A stretch of DNA of 64,000 bases from positions 256,001 through 320,000 of the forward strand of contig JBHLRP010000001.1 of the NCBI GenBank assembly GCA_048882485.1, in the 5' to 3' direction. The notes under the pieces were generated by a model. It worked only from the letters and a program-made list of their open reading frames with translations, was not told the DNA's origin and ran no database searches. The stretch is from Candidatus Thorarchaeota archaeon (lineage in GTDB: Archaea; Asgardarchaeota; Thorarchaeia; Thorarchaeales; Thorarchaeaceae). The position numbers were made by a program, and so were the translations under genes. Below are positions 1,515 to 63,404 of this stretch, piece by piece; position 1 is the first letter of the stretch; each line of letters begins with the position of its first letter.

Positions 1515-1622
1515 ATCGGGTGTGCGAAAACGCACAATCGTTGCTTAAGAATTGTTAATCGGGTGTGTGAAATCGCGCAACCGATGCTTAAAAATCGTTA
1601 ATCGGGTGTGTGAAATCGCACA
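1515..1622. repeat. 43-bp-period tandem repeat (three palindromic cores TGTGYGAAAWCGCRCA), putative operators
   Basis: ATCGGGTGTGCGAAAACGCACA at 1515, ATCGGGTGTGTGAAATCGCGCA at 1558, ATCGGGTGTGTGAAATCGCACA at 1601; the two spacers are also similar (tgcttaa.aat.gtta). Confidence 0.9.
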
Positions 1623-1675
1623 TCTGTGCATCGCAATCCTTTAAACTGCAACGCAACAGAGCCGGGCCGTAGGTT

Positions 1676-1918
1676 TTGACGATGACCCACGACGTAGCAC
1701 GAACATTCGATGCCTCAGGTATGAGGTGCCCAATGCCAATCCTCAAGACAAAGAAAGAGATCAGCCAAGTTGAAATTGGTCAGATTCTCCAAGTAATCGC
1801 GACTGACATCGGAACCAAAAAGGACTTCCCTGCATTTGCCGAGAGAACCGGTCATGAGATAGTTGAACTTGTTGAAGAAGGCGACAGACTCGTTTGGTAT
1901 ATTAGGCGTACCAAGTGA
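1676..1918 (+). CDS. tusA: sulfurtransferase TusA family protein (likely ATG at 1682)
   Basis: 'DASGMRCPMPILKT' CPxP motif, 'ATD.GT.KDFPAF...GH'; TTTAAA TATA-like box at ~1640. Confidence 0.92.
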   Translation: MTMTHDVARTFDASGMRCPMPILKTKKEISQVEIGQILQVIATDIGTKKDFPAFAERTGHEIVELVEEGDRLVWYIRRTK

Positions 1919-1935
1919 TGTTTTTTCTGGGAAGG

Positions 1936-2343
1936 CTATGCCTTCTTTCCTGGGACGATTAGGACTTGTCCCAGCATATCTCCTATCATGACAGAGGCCT
2001 TCAGTCTGGACTGAAACATTGCCATGTTTGCCACTCTTTCTTCATTATAAGGTTTGTATTCAAGAGCCCCAATACAAGATATGTGGCCCATGCCATTCGC
2101 ACCATAAAATGATTGAAGGACCATTCCATATGCTGGAATGTCAATTGGTCTTATTGGGACTATTCGTGTTTCACCTTCAACAAATGGGACTTTCTCATTT
2201 GCCACGACTGGTGTCAGCTTCGCTCTGTCCCATTGCAATGCGATTTCAATTTCGTTAAGTCCATCCACTGCAGACCTGACCCTATCTATCCCAATCTCTG
2301 CTAAGTCTTGTCTGCAACTTATGACATAGATTTTCTCTGACAA
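1936..2343 (-). CDS. DUF22-like protein
   Basis: 'GETRIV.I.PI.IP...G..GH....G...GD.LG.V.' pattern resembles archaeal DUF22. Confidence 0.6.
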   Translation of the reverse strand: MSEKIYVISCRQDLAEIGIDRVRSAVDGLNEIEIALQWDRAKLTPVVANEKVPFVEGETRIVPIRPIDIPAYGMVLQSFYGANGMGHISCIGALEYKPYNEERVANMAMFQSRLKASVMIGDMLGQVLIVPGKKA

Positions 2344-2463
2344 TGCTGAGTTCTCCTTGATGAAACTGTGGATTAGCAGTCTTAAGTAATTATCGAATCA
2401 TGATTCATTATATGGTGAATAATTCTAGAATCTATTTATGCTAGTCTTCAGTTGATAAAATGA

Positions 2464-3303
2464 GTGAGATCGATGGATACAGCTGAAATCATGGAGATTG
2501 CCCTTGAGATGGCTGAGCTGGACGAGATTCCAGGTGACTCGGCTATCCACGTGCCTGGGACAGACATTCAGCGAATTCTGATAGGAATTGACATGTGGAC
2601 GTCGGAGCTTCTGCTTGCCAGAGAGTTAAACTACGACTTGGTCATTGCACATCATCCTCCCGGTGGTGTTGCTAGAATCAATTTTGACCAAGTAGTGCTA
2701 AGGCAGATTCAGCAGATGATTGATGCAGGCATTCCTTCACACCGAGCAGAGAAGGCTCTAAAACCACGTCTAGATGTCACAAGAGCGAACATTCACACAA
2801 GCAACTACGATCGGTTTGTTTCTGCGGCACGTCTGATGGAGATGCCCTTTATGAACATCCATCTCCCCCTTGACATAATCTGTCGAAGGCGATTCATTGA
2901 GGCGGTGGAAGAAGGAACTAGGAACATCACAGAACCACTGGTGCAAGATGCAATAGAAGCGATGAATGAGATTCCAGAGATGAAAATGGGAATGACTGAG
3001 CCTATGGTTCATGTTGGCTTAGCCCAGAATCGACTAGGCGGTTGGATTGTAGCAATGGCGGGAGGGACAAATGGAGGAGCAGGAGTCGCCAAGGCTTACT
3101 TTGATGCTGGTTATTCAACTGTGATCTACATGCACCTTGGGGACACAGATAAGAAGGAACTCCTTAATTATGAAAATGCTGGAAACCTGGTGGCGACGGG
3201 GCATATTGCATCGGACTCGGTTGGCATTGCTCCCTTTGTCAAGGAGTTGCGTTCGAGAGGACTAGAAGTCACACCTATGAGTGGAGTCTTTGTCCCTGAA
3301 TAG
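2464..3303 (+). CDS. NIF3-like dinuclear metal-centre protein
   Basis: 'ILIGID', 'DLVIAHHP', 'NIHLPLD', 'GHIASD' metal-binding motifs. Confidence 0.8.
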   Translation: MRSMDTAEIMEIALEMAELDEIPGDSAIHVPGTDIQRILIGIDMWTSELLLARELNYDLVIAHHPPGGVARINFDQVVLRQIQQMIDAGIPSHRAEKALKPRLDVTRANIHTSNYDRFVSAARLMEMPFMNIHLPLDIICRRRFIEAVEEGTRNITEPLVQDAIEAMNEIPEMKMGMTEPMVHVGLAQNRLGGWIVAMAGGTNGGAGVAKAYFDAGYSTVIYMHLGDTDKKELLNYENAGNLVATGHIASDSVGIAPFVKELRSRGLEVTPMSGVFVPE

Positions 3304-59106: not shown

Positions 59107-60051
59107 ATGAGATGTATGGGAGTTGCAGGTAGCGTTTCTCTCTACGCTCATGATGACTCCTATCTCTCCTACTTCAATAGTCCTTTCATTGGTCACAGAA
59201 GATTCAGTTCAATTGATGTGTATCCCGCAGATGGTGCGTGGGACGGTCCAGCGTTTTCACCAATTGATGGGAAAGTCACCCAGGTGAGAACTTTGAAGAT
59301 GGGAAAAAAGAAGGCTTTCCCCACTTCTTCTCGCGACTATGCGATTGCAATCGCACCTGACGATGTGACGGACACAATTGTCCGGATTCTACATTGCAGG
59401 CCCAAAGTATCCGAAGGTGACGTTGTTTCAAAAGGGGATCTCATTGGGAGTCTAATCAGGTCTAGATACTTCTGCTTTTGGACTGGCCCCCATTATCATG
59501 TCGAAGCAATGCATCCGAAGGACTTCATCAGGCCATCTCAATCATTTCCGATAATAGTCAAGACTAGAACGATTAACACTATTCTAGGAAATTCGGCCAA
59601 TCAGTTTGAGTGTGAGGTCATGAACTGCACTCAAGATATTGTGGAGTGTTGGTCACATGAGATTTCTTCCGCAAGCATGGAGGAATATCACGGACACTTA
59701 GCTAAAATTGGCAGTTCATCTAGCATTCTTGATGCTGGCGTCCCCCATTACAAAAAAGGAGGATTGCTAGGAAATCCAATTGCAGATATTGGCTATCCAA
59801 TTCAGGCGTTTGGCGTCTCAATAGGTCGTGTATCATCGATATCTGAATCCTTTGTACAATTCATAATGGAGAAGAATGTAATTGCTACTCTGGATGGGGA
59901 GAATCTTGGGGGTCTATCGACACATCTCTATTCCAATAGGCAGCTAATTAATGGCCGTCCCCCCATCTTCCTGATCCCCGAAGAACGCAATCAGTTTGAA
60001 GGAAGGCTATCCGAGGGTGACTGCATCGTTCTCAGTATCAATAAAACTTGA
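59107..60051 (+). CDS. M23-like zinc peptidase-fold protein without signal peptide
   Basis: 'H.....D.Y', 'SPIDGKV', 'LH', 'V.EGD.V..GD.IG', 'WTGPHYHVE'. Confidence 0.65.
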   Translation: MRCMGVAGSVSLYAHDDSYLSYFNSPFIGHRRFSSIDVYPADGAWDGPAFSPIDGKVTQVRTLKMGKKKAFPTSSRDYAIAIAPDDVTDTIVRILHCRPKVSEGDVVSKGDLIGSLIRSRYFCFWTGPHYHVEAMHPKDFIRPSQSFPIIVKTRTINTILGNSANQFECEVMNCTQDIVECWSHEISSASMEEYHGHLAKIGSSSSILDAGVPHYKKGGLLGNPIADIGYPIQAFGVSIGRVSSISESFVQFIMEKNVIATLDGENLGGLSTHLYSNRQLINGRPPIFLIPEERNQFEGRLSEGDCIVLSINKT

Positions 60052-60146: not shown

Positions 60147-60416
60147 TCAATGGAAATCATAGAAGCAGAAATCGCATCCACCACCCCTATTCGCGACCTC
60201 TGACGACCAGTTATCCTCATGATCACGAATATCGATCGGTACCCAGCGATACATCTGCTTTGGTACTGTTTCTCGGTCCACAGAAATGCTGTCCTTGCTT
60301 GAGTCCTCCTGGCACGGTGTTGCTGACAATGCGTTCACTGCACTAGTAAACACAGCTGCAGCGGACATAGCAAAAAGGACGACTATCCCTGCTGCCAATA
60401 TAGTCCTCTTGTTCAA
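60147..60416 (-). CDS. small secreted peptide precursor (89 aa) with C-terminal GGGCDFCFYDFH
   Basis: Signal peptide MNKR plus hydrophobic core plus A-x-A-like site; purine-rich SD; own promoter and terminator. Confidence 0.75.
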   Translation of the reverse strand: MNKRTILAAGIVVLFAMSAAAVFTSAVNALSATPCQEDSSKDSISVDRETVPKQMYRWVPIDIRDHEDNWSSEVANRGGGCDFCFYDFH

Positions 60417-60569
60417 CTATTCCTACTCTCCTCTATAATGTGCTGCATGGTCAAACTCGCGCAGCAGCCTAGAATACTGCCAGCTGTCTTGAGAGATTTT
60501 GAAAGCAAATTCCTGGGACTGGAATGGACAATGGAGGTCCAGGTTTTTGAAGACATTGAATTCAACCAT

Positions 60570-60606
60570 GTAATAGTGTTACAGCTTACTCAATATATAT
60601 TTTTCG
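60570..60606 (-). promoter_or_regulatory. promoter P1 (BRE CGAAAA, TATA ATATATAT) with operator O1 GTAATAGTGTTAC
   Basis: Same 37-bp architecture as 60751-60787. Confidence 0.7.
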
Positions 60607-60666
60607 ATTACAAGTTTCATATTGCTTATTTGCCCTGTATGAGTTGAAGTAGTTTGCTAGATTATC

Positions 60667-60750
60667 AAAACACAGGCCGGAATCCTCAAGCAAGGCATTT
60701 CGAGAACGCAAGGAAGGCAAGAACACTGTCCTTTCGCTTGAAGATTCCGT
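60667..60750 (-). ncRNA. candidate ~85-nt stem-loop small RNA
   Basis: CGGAAUCUUCAAGC-GA-AAGG pairs with CCUU-GCUUGAGGAUUCCG (a G-U pair favours the minus strand); starts ~30 nt after a TATA box and ends at a U4 tract. Confidence 0.6.
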
Positions 60751-60787
60751 GTGATAGTATTACATGTTACATTATATAATTCTTTCG
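60751..60787 (-). promoter_or_regulatory. promoter P2 (BRE CGAAAG, TATA TTATATAA) with operator O2 GTGATAGTATTAC
   Basis: Operator, extra TTAC half-site, TATA and CGAAA at the same spacing as in P1. Confidence 0.7.
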
Positions 60788-60934
60788 TTTAATCAGAATT
60801 GAATGCTAAATCGGTGTCTAACAGGCCTTTTAGCATATTGGCATCCAAAATATCTCTAAAAGAGTGATCCCCTCTTTTTGGCTTAGAATTCCCTTTGAAT
60901 TGTGGAAACATCCACTCGAAAGACATCATATACA

Positions 60935-60974
60935 GTAATAGTGTTACGTAGAAAAATATATTAGAATTCATTAC
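60935..60974 (+). promoter_or_regulatory. operator O3 GTAATAGTGTTAC next to the BRE/TATA of the RHH gene
   Basis: Exact copy of O1, followed by GAAAAATATATT and a TTAC half-site. Confidence 0.65.
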
Positions 60975-61001
60975 TATAATTAGATAGGACAGGTGATCAC
61001 A

Positions 61002-61654: not shown

Positions 61655-62635
61655 TTGGTCGAAAAGATTCGCTTATCCATTGGTACTGCAATTCAGATGG
61701 GATTGGAGCCAGGCGATTTGGATGAATGTTTCTCGACAGCATTCCTAATGACATATACTGATAGAAGGTGCAGCGCGAACTGTGCATTTTGTCCTCAGGC
61801 TAGGGGTAGCAACTCAGCTTCAGATCGACTTTCTAGAATTTCATGGCCCGTTTACACCTTGGATGACATCATGGAACGATTCTCAGAAGATACTCCTTTC
61901 AAGCGTGTATGCATACAAGTTTTGAATTCGCCCGGCATAACCAAAGATGTCAAGCAGATAATCATTCAGCTTCGAGATAACATACAGATTCCTATTTCAA
62001 TTTCAATTCATCCTCTTTCAAAAGCAGAGATGATGAGACTACACGCAGCTGGAGCAACCAGCATCGGTATTGCGCTGGACGCATGTACTGAGCCTCTATT
62101 TACCAAGATTAAAGGAAAAGAGCGGGGCTCGGCGTACAGATGGCAAACTCACATTGAAGCCCTATCCAATGCTCTGGAAGTGTTTGGAGAGGGGAATGTT
62201 GCCACCCATCTAATTGTGGGACTAGGTGAATCTGAGGAGGAGATCATTGAGTTTCTGAAAAAGATGAAACGCCTCAAGATTCGAGTGGGTCTCTTTGCAT
62301 TCACGAATATTCGCGGTACCGCACTAGAGCATTGGAGCCAGCCAGATATTTCGACTTACAGACGAGTTCAAGTAGTTCATTACATTCTCAACAATGAACT
62401 ACTTAGCGATGACAAAATAAGAATAGTCGAAGGTGGAGAGGTTCAACTGGATTTATCCACGACACGCCTGAAGGAAATCTTATCATCAGGAGCTGCTTTT
62501 CAGACATCCGGCTGCAAGGACTGCAACCGTCCCTACTATAATGAGCGTCCTAGTGGACCTCTCTACAACTATCCGAGACCTCTTTCACGAGAGGAAGTAG
62601 CGGAAGCCATTGCAGCAACCGGTCTGGTGAGTTGA
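61655..62635 (+). CDS. lipS2: radical SAM lipoyl synthase subunit, LipS2-type
   Basis: CSANCAFC plus C-terminal 'TSGCKDCNRP' (TxGCxxCNRP) motif; adjacent to lipoate ligase genes. Confidence 0.8.
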   Translation: MVEKIRLSIGTAIQMGLEPGDLDECFSTAFLMTYTDRRCSANCAFCPQARGSNSASDRLSRISWPVYTLDDIMERFSEDTPFKRVCIQVLNSPGITKDVKQIIIQLRDNIQIPISISIHPLSKAEMMRLHAAGATSIGIALDACTEPLFTKIKGKERGSAYRWQTHIEALSNALEVFGEGNVATHLIVGLGESEEEIIEFLKKMKRLKIRVGLFAFTNIRGTALEHWSQPDISTYRRVQVVHYILNNELLSDDKIRIVEGGEVQLDLSTTRLKEILSSGAAFQTSGCKDCNRPYYNERPSGPLYNYPRPLSREEVAEAIAATGLVS

Positions 62636-62636
62636 G

Positions 62637-63404
62637 ATGGAAGAGGTCCGTTTCCTTGACCTTGAAACAAATGATGCCTACACGAACATGGCGATTGATG
62701 AATCAATCATGCTAGCATTGAAAGCGGATGAGGTTCGCCCGACTCTGCGATTATATCGCTGGAAACCCTCCGCTGTTTCAATAGGTACCTTTCAAGGAAT
62801 GATTGAGGAGGTCGATTTAGACTTCTGCAGAAGACGAAATATCGATTATATCCGGAGAATAACGGGAGGCGGCGCTGTCTACCATGATTACGAGGGCGAA
62901 ATTACCTATAGCATCATCCTACCAAAAGGACACAGATTGGCCCCTGATGATATTCTTGATTCATATCGGCTCCTATGTGGAGGCGTGGTGAAGGGTCTTG
63001 GACATTTGGGAATTGCTGCAGAATTCAAGCCCATCAATGATGTAATTGCTGGCGGCAAGAAGGTGTCTGGCAACGCACAGACGCGAAGACATTCATGTGT
63101 TCTCCAACATGGCACCATACTGCTAGACCTGGATATCGAGACCATGTTCTCAGTCCTTAAGGTTCCCCAAGAAAAGATATCCGACAAGATGATTGCAGAT
63201 GTAAAGGAAAGAGTGACATCTGTTAGAAACCTGCTGGATAGACAGGTTTCTTTTGAAGAATTGAGAGAGGCACTGGTGGTTGGTTTTACTTCTGCGTTGA
63301 GAGTTGAGCTCATTCATGACACTCTGACAACGAGTGAAATTGAGTCAATTCAACGTTTCAATTCTGAGAAATATGGTCAGGATGAATGGAATCTGAAGAG
63401 GTGA
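62637..63404 (+). CDS. lplA: lipoate-protein ligase catalytic subunit
   Basis: NMAIDE, 'RR.TGGGAVYHD', 'ND....KK.SG.AQ', 'QHGT'. Confidence 0.92.
   Translation: MEEVRFLDLETNDAYTNMAIDESIMLALKADEVRPTLRLYRWKPSAVSIGTFQGMIEEVDLDFCRRRNIDYIRRITGGGAVYHDYEGEITYSIILPKGHRLAPDDILDSYRLLCGGVVKGLGHLGIAAEFKPINDVIAGGKKVSGNAQTRRHSCVLQHGTILLDLDIETMFSVLKVPQEKISDKMIADVKERVTSVRNLLDRQVSFEELREALVVGFTSALRVELIHDTLTTSEIESIQRFNSEKYGQDEWNLKR

Follow-up and report, generated by a model that had tools for sequence, protein, structure and literature searches.

Organization of the locus

The window, by which we mean the whole stretch of 64,000 nt that was analysed, corresponds to positions 256001–320000 of contig C1 in an assembly of 3.96 Mb and 157 contigs. 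The RNA element described here is encoded on the minus strand and sits between a plus-strand gene for a protein of 110 aa, the putative regulator, and a minus-strand gene for a peptide of 89 aa, which we call X. The features of the locus are collected in Table 1.

Table 1 Features of the RNA locus. Positions are those of the window.
Feature	Position	Strand	Remarks
Small RNA	60667–60750	-	~84–95 nt, both ends inferred; based on fold and covariance model
Helix P1, 5′ strand CGGAAUCUUCAAGC	60736–60749	-	14 pairs
Helix P1, 3′ strand GCUUGAGGAUUCCG	60678–60691	-	pairs with 60736–60749
Hairpin P2	60710–60733	-	AAGGA with UCCUU of the pyrimidine-rich core; holds 60725–60710
Hairpin P3	60695–60709	-	GCGUU-CUCGA-AAUGC; carries GUUCUC, the most conserved motif of the family
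UUUU run	60667–60670	-	likely archaeal terminator signal (sequence reading)
BRE-like CGAAAG	60782–60787	-	directly upstream of the RNA TATA box; CGAAA-TATA arrangement conserved in orthologues
TATA box TTATATAA of the RNA promoter	60772–60779	-	sequence reading and orthologues
13-bp near-palindrome GTAATACTATCAC, putative operator	60751–60763	-	between TATA box and transcript start
Extra GTAACA half-site	60770–60765	-	near the palindrome of the RNA promoter
Third palindrome copy	60935–60947	.	precedes the BRE/TATA of the regulator gene
Putative regulator, 110 aa	61002–61334	+	weakly RHH-like; sub-threshold profile matches
Gene X, signal-anchored (secreted) peptide, 89 aa	60147–60416	-	UUG start; adjoins the RNA in 6 of 7 genus-1 loci
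X promoter and 153-nt leader	60423–60606	-	sequence reading, orthologues
X BRE CGAAAA	60606–60601	-	
X TATA	60600–60592	-	
X operator GTAACACTATTAC	60582–60570	-	
Leaderless 48-codon frame	60569–60423	-	fills the 153-nt leader of X exactly
Proposed target GAGGAGAGUAGGAAUA	60418–60433	-	just upstream of the UUG start of X

Fold of the RNA

A stretch of 96 nt containing the element folds at -34.3 kcal/mol, whereas its dinucleotide shuffles reach -21.0 ± 3.3 kcal/mol (z = -4.09; 1 in 200 as good). In the minimum-energy fold the RNA forms a three-way junction, which consists of the closing helix P1 and the two short hairpins P2 and P3. A preliminary description of this DNA had proposed a closing stem of ~18 bp. 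This stem is indeed present, but in this genome it comprises 16 contiguous pairs, and the 14 pairs given in Table 1 are its conserved part. The description had also placed the beginning of the stem at the expected transcription start site and had noted a UUUU run behind it, and here it was right on both points: ~26 nt separate the centre of the TATA box TTATATAA from the element's first base, which is the usual spacing in archaea, and the UUUU run is found at 60670–60667.

On the contrary, the segment 60725–60710, which had been taken for a loop, is mostly paired inside helix P2 of the three-way junction, and opening these 16 nt would cost 6.1 kcal/mol. Within this segment the sequence CCUUCCUU pairs with AAAGGA, both in the minimum-energy fold and in the ensemble. 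Its unpaired probability is ~0 in this genome (G000) and ranges from 0.08 to 0.79 in other members of the family. An alternative register of P2, AAGGAC/GUUCUU, is also compatible with the alignment. The core of the RNA is pyrimidine-rich and has two (G/A)UUCU(C/U) motifs on either side of CCUUCYUU.

Conservation and covariation

The genus-1 (g1) set contains seven sequences: this genome, 4 of the 16 other genomes of the genus, found by BLAST, and two metagenome contigs, found by a scan with the exact pattern. MAGs with an exact-pattern match to the core of the element carry the labels Thorarchaeota, Hermodarchaeota, or Promethearchaeota, from which the host was assigned to the Thorarchaeia within the Asgard archaea. 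In the seven sequences an interior of 36 nt hardly varies, in contrast to the diverging flanks. All substitutions in P1 preserve the pairing, with several switches between U-A and U-G; in five orthologues none of the 14 pairs is broken, and two series C-G to U-G to U-A are seen. As the G-U pairs of P1 are valid on the minus strand only, the transcribed strand is fixed. Matches of the covariance model reach 88–115 bits in five genomes and are ~90 bits weaker on the reverse strand.

A model built from the genus-1 sequences only (R1) weakly matched one genome of another genus, G020, and BLAST from there led to related sequences in 14 of the 28 genomes of genus g5. With the filters off, the g5 RNAs score 12–28 bits under R1 although the sequence of their P1 is different (GAAGUCCCCCG / CGGGGGAUUUC). 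Common to both genera is the core, GUUCUCCUUCUUUCUGUUCUCAAC versus GUUCUUGCCUUCCUUGCGUUCUCGAA, and single-sequence folds give the same three-way junction. Aligning both genera with MAFFT lost the structural register and produced no consensus fold; a model-guided alignment (A5) was therefore used instead. In this alignment of 19 sequences from two genera, 91.8% of all cells pair (96.5% in helix P1), and 13 of the 14 P1 pairs are altered on both sides; these pair counts are flattered, as the alignment was fitted to the model. The covariation score of 0.573 compares with at most 0.20 when the partners are slid and is reached by none of 500 shuffles. Covariation, which had been named as a check, thus strongly supports the long closing helix. 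That a wholly different P1 sequence in g5 still pairs would be hard to explain without a conserved helix.

The interior hairpins also change between the genera. P3 has 5 of 5 pairs in all members and undergoes a G-C to C-G and a G-U to G-C change; in this count the rows of g5 subgroup A and of G095 and G092 were scored on the upstream copy of GUUCUC, and single-sequence folds cover them. GUUCUC is invariant in 21 aligned sequences. For P2, in the minimum-energy register, a G-C pair is replaced by A-U at one position. The CCUUC motif is for the most part paired, and one member, G081, has lost it.

A second model built from both genera (R2) finds one copy each in 23 of 87 Thorarchaeia genomes from three genera: 5 of 17 in g1, 17 of 28 in g5, and 1 of 7 in g7. 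Many of the searched genomes are incomplete, so these counts mean "found in" and not "absent from". The search of 125 genomes from 26 other Asgard families with R2 gave no match. Weak matches in genus g3 and at G002:C82 were set aside, as they resemble coding sequence; the match in G101 and a second match in G090 are doubtful.

The known classes of RNA that were compared do not account for the element. Rfam 15 (4227 families) gave no match in the whole window at gathering thresholds, and with E values of up to 10 the region 60400–61000 gave three chance matches only, none of them on the element, which places the family outside Rfam. The search of the window for tRNA and tmRNA found none. A C/D-box or H/ACA guide RNA was considered and rejected, as the RUGAUGA, CUGA, and ACA motifs are absent on reading and there is no Rfam match. 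The same holds for a SECIS element, for which there is no Rfam match either; the alternatives to UGA at codon 34 of the upstream frame are UGG and AGG and not Cys codons. No conserved reading frame passes through the element among the orthologues, and its interior is invariant at all codon positions.

Taken together, the candidate small RNA of the preliminary description has gained in substance: its structure is conserved through compensatory changes and through G-U changes valid on one strand only, it has a BRE/TATA promoter and a T-rich tail (see below), it lacks a conserved reading frame, and it occurs once per genome. Judged by these sequence features, the element is very probably a real, independently transcribed small non-coding RNA. 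It most likely represents a new lineage-restricted RNA, that is, a new family of a known kind of molecule. The family appears to be previously undescribed and, as far as searched, restricted to one family of Thorarchaeia. To our knowledge, almost nothing is known of regulatory RNAs in Asgard archaea, and a literature search found no described small RNA of Thorarchaeia.

Promoter, palindrome, and putative regulator

A BRE/TATA-like box is present 21–32 nt upstream of P1 in all 24 RNA loci, and T-rich sequence follows P1 in most members of the family. The T-run itself is short, with T4 here, TTCTT in some orthologues, and none in M054. Between the TATA box and the start site lies the near-palindrome GTAATACTATCAC, which is invariant in six of seven genus-1 loci and has one change in M054. 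The same 13-mer is found again in the promoter of X and beside the gene of the 110-aa protein (Table 1), and the promoters of the RNA and of X share the layout BRE-TATA-operator-start. The state of the operator varies within the family: genus 1 has it exact, and within g5 it can still be recognised in subgroup A, as GTAAT-N3-GTTAC, and is degenerate in the subgroups B and C. In this genome the palindrome also marks a handful of other promoters. The third box, beside the gene of the 110-aa protein, is better read as the promoter of this gene, as its BRE faces the plus strand. This box had provisionally been taken for a promoter upstream of the RNA, the "P1" promoter; the 46-aa frame that comes after it on the minus strand is not conserved.

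Sixty of the 86 genomes of the family contain homologues of the putative regulator, paralogues included. In all 30 regulator genes examined the same palindrome is located 55–105 nt upstream of the start codon, and in every locus with enough contig the regulator gene is at most ~1.2 kb away from the RNA. Profile searches classify the protein only loosely. Pfam RHH_1 (PF01402) is matched by 5 of 12 members with E values of 0.006–0.025, at 15 bits versus a cut-off of 20.5. NCBIfam AbmR (NF058631) matches the C-terminal third only, with E 8e-5 and 22.2 bits versus a cut-off of 160, and on account of this score the regulator is not a member of the AbmR family. A profile search found no relative in the PDB, and the AlphaFold model of the monomer is one long helix.

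The distribution of the palindrome looks like that of an autoregulated DNA-binding protein with a small regulon. As the RNA promoter carries the same palindrome that precedes the regulator genes, the RNA is most likely repressed by the regulator. That the palindrome and the putative regulator together control the RNA is, in our opinion, probable.

The peptide gene and the layout of the cassette

Searches of Pfam and NCBIfam with X gave no match. X has a conserved promoter and operator of its own, and in most genomes the promoter of the adjacent X is built like that of the RNA. In genus 1 the order of the genes is the regulator on the plus strand and then, divergently, the RNA and X in tandem. 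This order is found in six of seven loci, both metagenome contigs included. In the remaining genome, G011, the regulator and the RNA are kept and the sequence beyond the RNA differs; no homologue of X was found in this genome, which is 88% complete. The first transcribed bases of the RNA resemble those of the X leader.

The layout differs in g5, where the gene next after the regulator is X-like and runs convergent to it, and the RNA and X are oriented in opposite directions from a promoter region that they share. Thus, the RNA cannot be the leader of X. The X-like genes of g5 code for signal-anchored peptides of 88–264 aa with a hypervariable C-terminal part and sometimes tandem repeats. The genes downstream of them vary and include a radical-SAM enzyme in some genomes; some of the peptide precursors combine tandem repeated cores with an adjacent radical-SAM enzyme. 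Between the two genera the X peptides have weak N-terminal similarity only (E 0.006 without composition correction). The start regions of X, in turn, are alike and unusually conserved, with AGAGGAGAGUAGG in g1 and GGAGGAGAUAGAGA in g5.

The RNA gene always abuts the promoter region of the regulator or X, and its constant partner is the regulator. The conserved cassette, as it appears from the sequences, is thus made up of a putative regulator, the palindrome in the RNA promoter, and usually a gene for a hypervariable, apparently secreted peptide. This is a covariation-supported RNA family with defined parts, namely a promoter, a putative operator, a candidate regulator, and a linked secreted-peptide gene. 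The cassette of RNA, regulator, and peptide therefore offers a regulatory module that can be tested, from an uncultured lineage that stands near the origin of eukaryotes.

Proposed mode of action

The explanation that in our view suits the locus best as a whole is a regulator-controlled small RNA that acts in trans via its pyrimidine-rich core; we give this reading a probability of about 0.55. The RNA would be transcribed on its own from the BRE/TATA promoter and would fold into the three-way junction. The regulator most likely represses the RNA via the palindrome abutting the start site, and X, where it is adjacent, would be repressed together with the RNA through its like promoter. The RNA might then act in trans as the regulatory output of the cassette, which is the weakest step of the proposal. 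Once P2 opens, the pyrimidine-rich core could pair with purine-rich, SD-like segments of mRNAs. As the core is CU-rich, pairing with purine-rich start regions is the most economical guess, and we put it forward tentatively, as possible rather than probable. The P3 hairpin, which is the best conserved part of the RNA, would suit recognition by a protein equally well as pairing.

Proposed pairing of the RNA with the start region of X

The preliminary description had suggested a more specific role, namely that the RNA is a dedicated antisense repressor which masks the ribosome-binding site of X by pairing of 60725–60710 with 60433–60418. The pairing itself exists as described. Between the RNA segment and the target GAGGAGAGUAGGAAUA, pairs form at 15 of 16 positions, five being G-U, with one C.A mismatch, and the isolated duplex reaches -15.3 kcal/mol. 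After the costs of opening the RNA (see above) and the site in the mRNA (2.3 kcal/mol) a net energy of about -6.9 kcal/mol is left for the RNA and the X TIR. Among control starts, for which we took SD-bearing starts of open frames of at least 100 codons in the same genome, only 1.7% reach 15 of 16 or more ungapped pairs, i.e. ~70 of the 4084 such starts in this genome. In addition, the RNA gene adjoins the X promoter in two genera and in both arrangements, the X TIR is unusually conserved in both of them, and a homologous register of pairing is also possible in g5.

As a refutation, however, the preliminary description had named an energy no better than that of random purine-rich RBSs, and this is the outcome, as the energies are quite ordinary. 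The duplex between the core and the X RBS has -18.1 kcal/mol, and 28% of 2500 SD-bearing starts of the same genome are as good, as are 39.5% of the dinucleotide shuffles of the target, which match or beat this value. The cofold gain, which charges for opening the RNA, amounts to -4.2 kcal/mol compared to -4.0 ± 2.3 kcal/mol for the controls, 42% of which do equally well. Other genomes give the same picture: cognate pairs of RNA and X start from 15 genomes are scattered between the 5th and the 97th percentile with a median of ~0.3, and the RNA against the whole X leader yields p values of 0.10–0.87 against shuffles in 16 genomes.

The evolution of the two partners also speaks against a dedicated repressor. 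Within genus 1 the core of the RNA is invariant, but the target base opposite U4 has changed from A to U in G005 and G015 and thus is uncompensated; between the genera the positions of RNA and target show only neutral changes from G-C to G-U. G011 has the RNA and no detectable X, and vice versa G008 and G006, the latter two having the closest relative of the regulator without the RNA, keep the AGAGGAGAG start region on a divergent transcript. Moreover, the pairing stretch is held inside helix P2, and in genus 1 the site in the mRNA coincides with the last codons of the leaderless 48-codon frame, so that ribosomes finishing this frame would strip off the bound RNA. For these reasons we consider a dedicated antisense repressor of X unlikely, and the reservation already made in the preliminary description, that the segment might be a generic anti-SD element or a chance match, fits the data better. 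The conserved linkage to X nevertheless keeps the X mRNA among the candidate targets, where it is one candidate which is not statistically favoured, and the RBS idea is thus weakened but not discarded. The case illustrates how easily a pyrimidine-rich RNA seems to mask a purine-rich RBS.

The search for other targets was not more rewarding. The core's best genomic Watson–Crick complement, 17 nt long, lies in a cysteine desulfurase gene (E 0.005). This 17-mer varies at synonymous sites in other RNA-bearing genomes and is thus a chance match. Several complements of the core sharing AACGCAAGGAAG were rejected, all being in unrelated coding sequences, and so was an 8-nt complement, GAGAACAG, in the coding sequence of the regulator, which likewise varies at synonymous sites. 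With the start region of the regulator the RNA mostly pairs worse than the controls do. None of the X TIR, the X leader, and the regulator TIR stands out as a target, as all score like controls.

Alternative explanations

A further explanation is that the RNA works through a protein, with P3 and the duplicated GUUCUC motifs as binding sites, and sequesters or scaffolds this protein, which is possibly the adjacent regulator. The most conserved bases of the family, GUUCUC, are located in a 5-bp hairpin and accompanied by the second (G/A)UUCU(C/U) copy, a convincing RNA target was not found, and it is the gene of the regulator, and not X, that constantly accompanies the RNA. In addition, the regulator is weakly similar to the nucleic-acid-binding C-terminal part of AbmR, for which competitive binding of RNA and DNA has been reported (bioRxiv 10.1101/2021.09.03.458936). 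But this binding was reported to be non-specific and only marginal for Mcr11, and the match to AbmR amounts to 22 bits compared with a cut-off of 160. Profile searches identified no RNA-binding domain in the regulator or its neighbours, and the reasoning in part argues from the absence of a target, which was judged with simple energy tools. We therefore regard an action through a protein as quite unlikely.

More far-reaching is the idea of a peptide-based cassette for signalling or competition whose effector arm would be the RNA; a pair of promoters under the control of the regulator would drive both the precursor of a hypervariable secreted peptide and an RNA that reprograms the translation of other genes. 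If true, this would make the cassette an archaeal counterpart of agr P2/P3-RNAIII. At present this is a long shot.

The element could also act in cis, either as the structured part of a longer transcript reading through into the peptide operon or as an insulating or terminating hairpin between the regulator gene and X. The short or missing T-run, the tandem position upstream of the X promoter in genus 1, and the likeness of the first transcribed bases to those of the X leader would agree with such a role. It is, however, at odds with the g5 loci, where the RNA is directed away from X and has a BRE/TATA of its own, with the conserved promoter and operator that X possesses itself, and with G011, which keeps the element where no downstream X was found. 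Furthermore, archaeal termination needs no hairpin, and the invariant interior and the conserved three-way junction exceed what a terminator would need. Thus, a role in cis is very improbable. A chance inverted repeat without function can practically be dismissed in view of the folding energy (z = -4.09) and of the conservation and compensatory changes across 23 genomes and three genera.

Comparison with known systems

Several known systems share single traits with the regulator-controlled, trans-acting RNA that we prefer. Small RNAs that target start regions are known from archaea, for example, sRNA162 of Methanosarcina mazei, and from bacteria, for example, RsaE/RoxS with their C-rich loops. 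These RNAs are of similar size, have their own promoter, and carry a pyrimidine-rich segment that can pair with purine-rich RBSs. In contrast to them, the pyrimidine motif of the RNA described here is not in a loop and there is no statistically favoured target.

Type I toxin–antitoxin systems with a nearby, non-overlapping antitoxin RNA, such as tisB/istR-1 and shoB/ohsC, also combine a small-RNA gene with the neighbouring gene of a membrane-anchored small protein that has a long structured leader. The repressor operator in the promoter and the partial complementarity near the start are further similarities. However, X has 88–264 aa with a variable extracellular part and is not a hydrophobic toxin of <60 aa, the complementarity is not above background, and the RNA persists without a detectable X in G011.

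In the agr system of Staphylococcus aureus the divergent promoters P2, for the operon of the peptide precursor, and P3, for RNAIII, are under the control of one regulator. RNAIII has 514 nt and targets SD sequences with C-rich hairpin loops. Similar to agr, a secreted-peptide gene and a structured RNA have adjacent promoters here which share the sites of a putative regulator, the g5 layout being divergent, and the C-rich loops of RNAIII have their counterpart in the CU-rich core. Nevertheless, no component is homologous, X is not known to be a signal peptide, and the RNA described here has only 85 nt, encodes nothing, and has a CU-rich core which is largely paired.

The closest described arrangement is AbmR-Mcr11 of Mycobacterium tuberculosis, in which a transcription factor is accompanied by an adjacent, divergently transcribed small RNA (PMC6282994, PMC7064933). 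AbmR is small and autoregulated and controls the adjacent small RNA via repeats in the shared intergenic region (PMC6282994; bioRxiv 10.1101/2021.09.03.458936). The resemblance is architectural: in both cases a small, here putative, autoregulated DNA-binding protein is found beside a small-RNA gene with repeated sites in the shared intergenic region for the control of both, and in addition the regulator of the Thorarchaeia weakly matches the C-terminal nucleic-acid-binding part of AbmR (E 8e-5). The two systems differ in the domain of life and in the type of promoter, and the RNAs are unrelated. A further difference concerns the direction of control. AbmR activates Mcr11 (PMC6282994, PMC7064933, bioRxiv 10.1101/2021.09.03.458936), whereas the position of the operator between the TATA box and the start site suggests that the RNA of the Thorarchaeia is repressed.

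Promoters of the small RNA and the peptide gene

The likeness between the promoter of the small RNA and that of the signal-anchored peptide gene X extends to the first transcribed bases, ACGGAAUCUUCAAG at the RNA and AUGGUUGAAUUCAAU at X, and in sequence both promoters look like tandem duplicates. A TTCAA(T/G) motif lies 8–12 nt past the 13-bp palindrome, the putative operator, and is repeated at other operator-bearing promoters. Outside the window, the palindrome with an upstream TATA box is also found at five further promoters of this genome, G000. Two of these copies stand in tandem on contig C8, with small basic open reading frames downstream and leaders of ∼50 nt, and the copy on C3 adjoins a paralogue of the weakly RHH-like regulator. 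The palindrome-marked promoters look like a small regulon.

Some 25–30 nt 3′ of the small RNA a (T/G)CATACAA motif is observed, which is kept in 5/5 genomes, including G011 with no peptide operon. It could be a piece of the 3′ end of the RNA or a separate signal.

The leader of the peptide gene

In five of the six loci of genus 1, the genus of G000, the leader of X is exactly 153 nt long. It doubles as a leaderless frame of 48 codons whose first codon, AUG or GUG, coincides with the predicted start of transcription, and this frame is open in four of the six loci; codon 34 is UGA in genome G005 and metagenome contig M053 and UGG or AGG in the others. Because its stop codon UAG is located 6 nt upstream of the UUG start of X, the arrangement suggests translational coupling of the leader frame with the peptide gene.

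Features discussed in the text, and flanking genes (positions in the window unless a contig, C, or locus, L, is named)
Feature	Position	Strand	Remark
Predicted transcript starts of small RNA and X	60736-60750 vs 60555-60569	-	sequence comparison
Leader / leaderless frame of X	60423-60569	-	sequence reading, genus-1 loci
(T/G)CATACAA motif	60630-60640	-	
Flanking gene for a 314-aa protein, weak M23-peptidase and lipoyl-like matches	59107-60051	+	convergent with peptide gene
Flanking genes: radical-SAM protein, then lipoate-protein-ligase-like gene	61655-63404	+	downstream of regulator
Palindrome copy	C8:64630	+	TATA box precedes
Palindrome copy	C8:64897	+	TATA box precedes
Palindrome copy	C23:34218	-	TATA box precedes
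Palindrome copy	C3:18567	-	TATA box precedes
Palindrome copy	C6:71800	-	TATA box precedes
Regulator paralogue	C3:18688-18966		
Divergent-transcript hairpin	L073:1270-1366 (G008)	-	also matching part of L074 (G006)
X-like / radical-SAM region	L097:535-1329 and 1610-3082 (G094)	-	similar in L098, L101, L107

Related loci in other genomes

In genomes G008 and G006 the closest relative of the regulator stands without the small RNA. A hairpin, GAUGCCAGGC...GCCUGGCAUC (z -1.85), occurs in the transcript divergent from this relative; its interior, CAAGGAGGAAGGAAGGGCGAGAA, is rich in purines and is approximately the complement of the CU-rich core of the small RNA. The same stretch can also be read as a 22-codon open reading frame downstream of AGAGGAGAG.

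In another RNA-bearing genus of Thorarchaeia, g5, the secreted X-like protein can carry short peptide units in tandem, for example the YFENAVDRLV motif many times over, and in several genomes a radical-SAM enzyme of 460–490 aa with a CxxxCxxC motif is encoded near its gene. This layout of a repeat-bearing gene near a radical-SAM gene resembles that of a RiPP precursor and its maturase.
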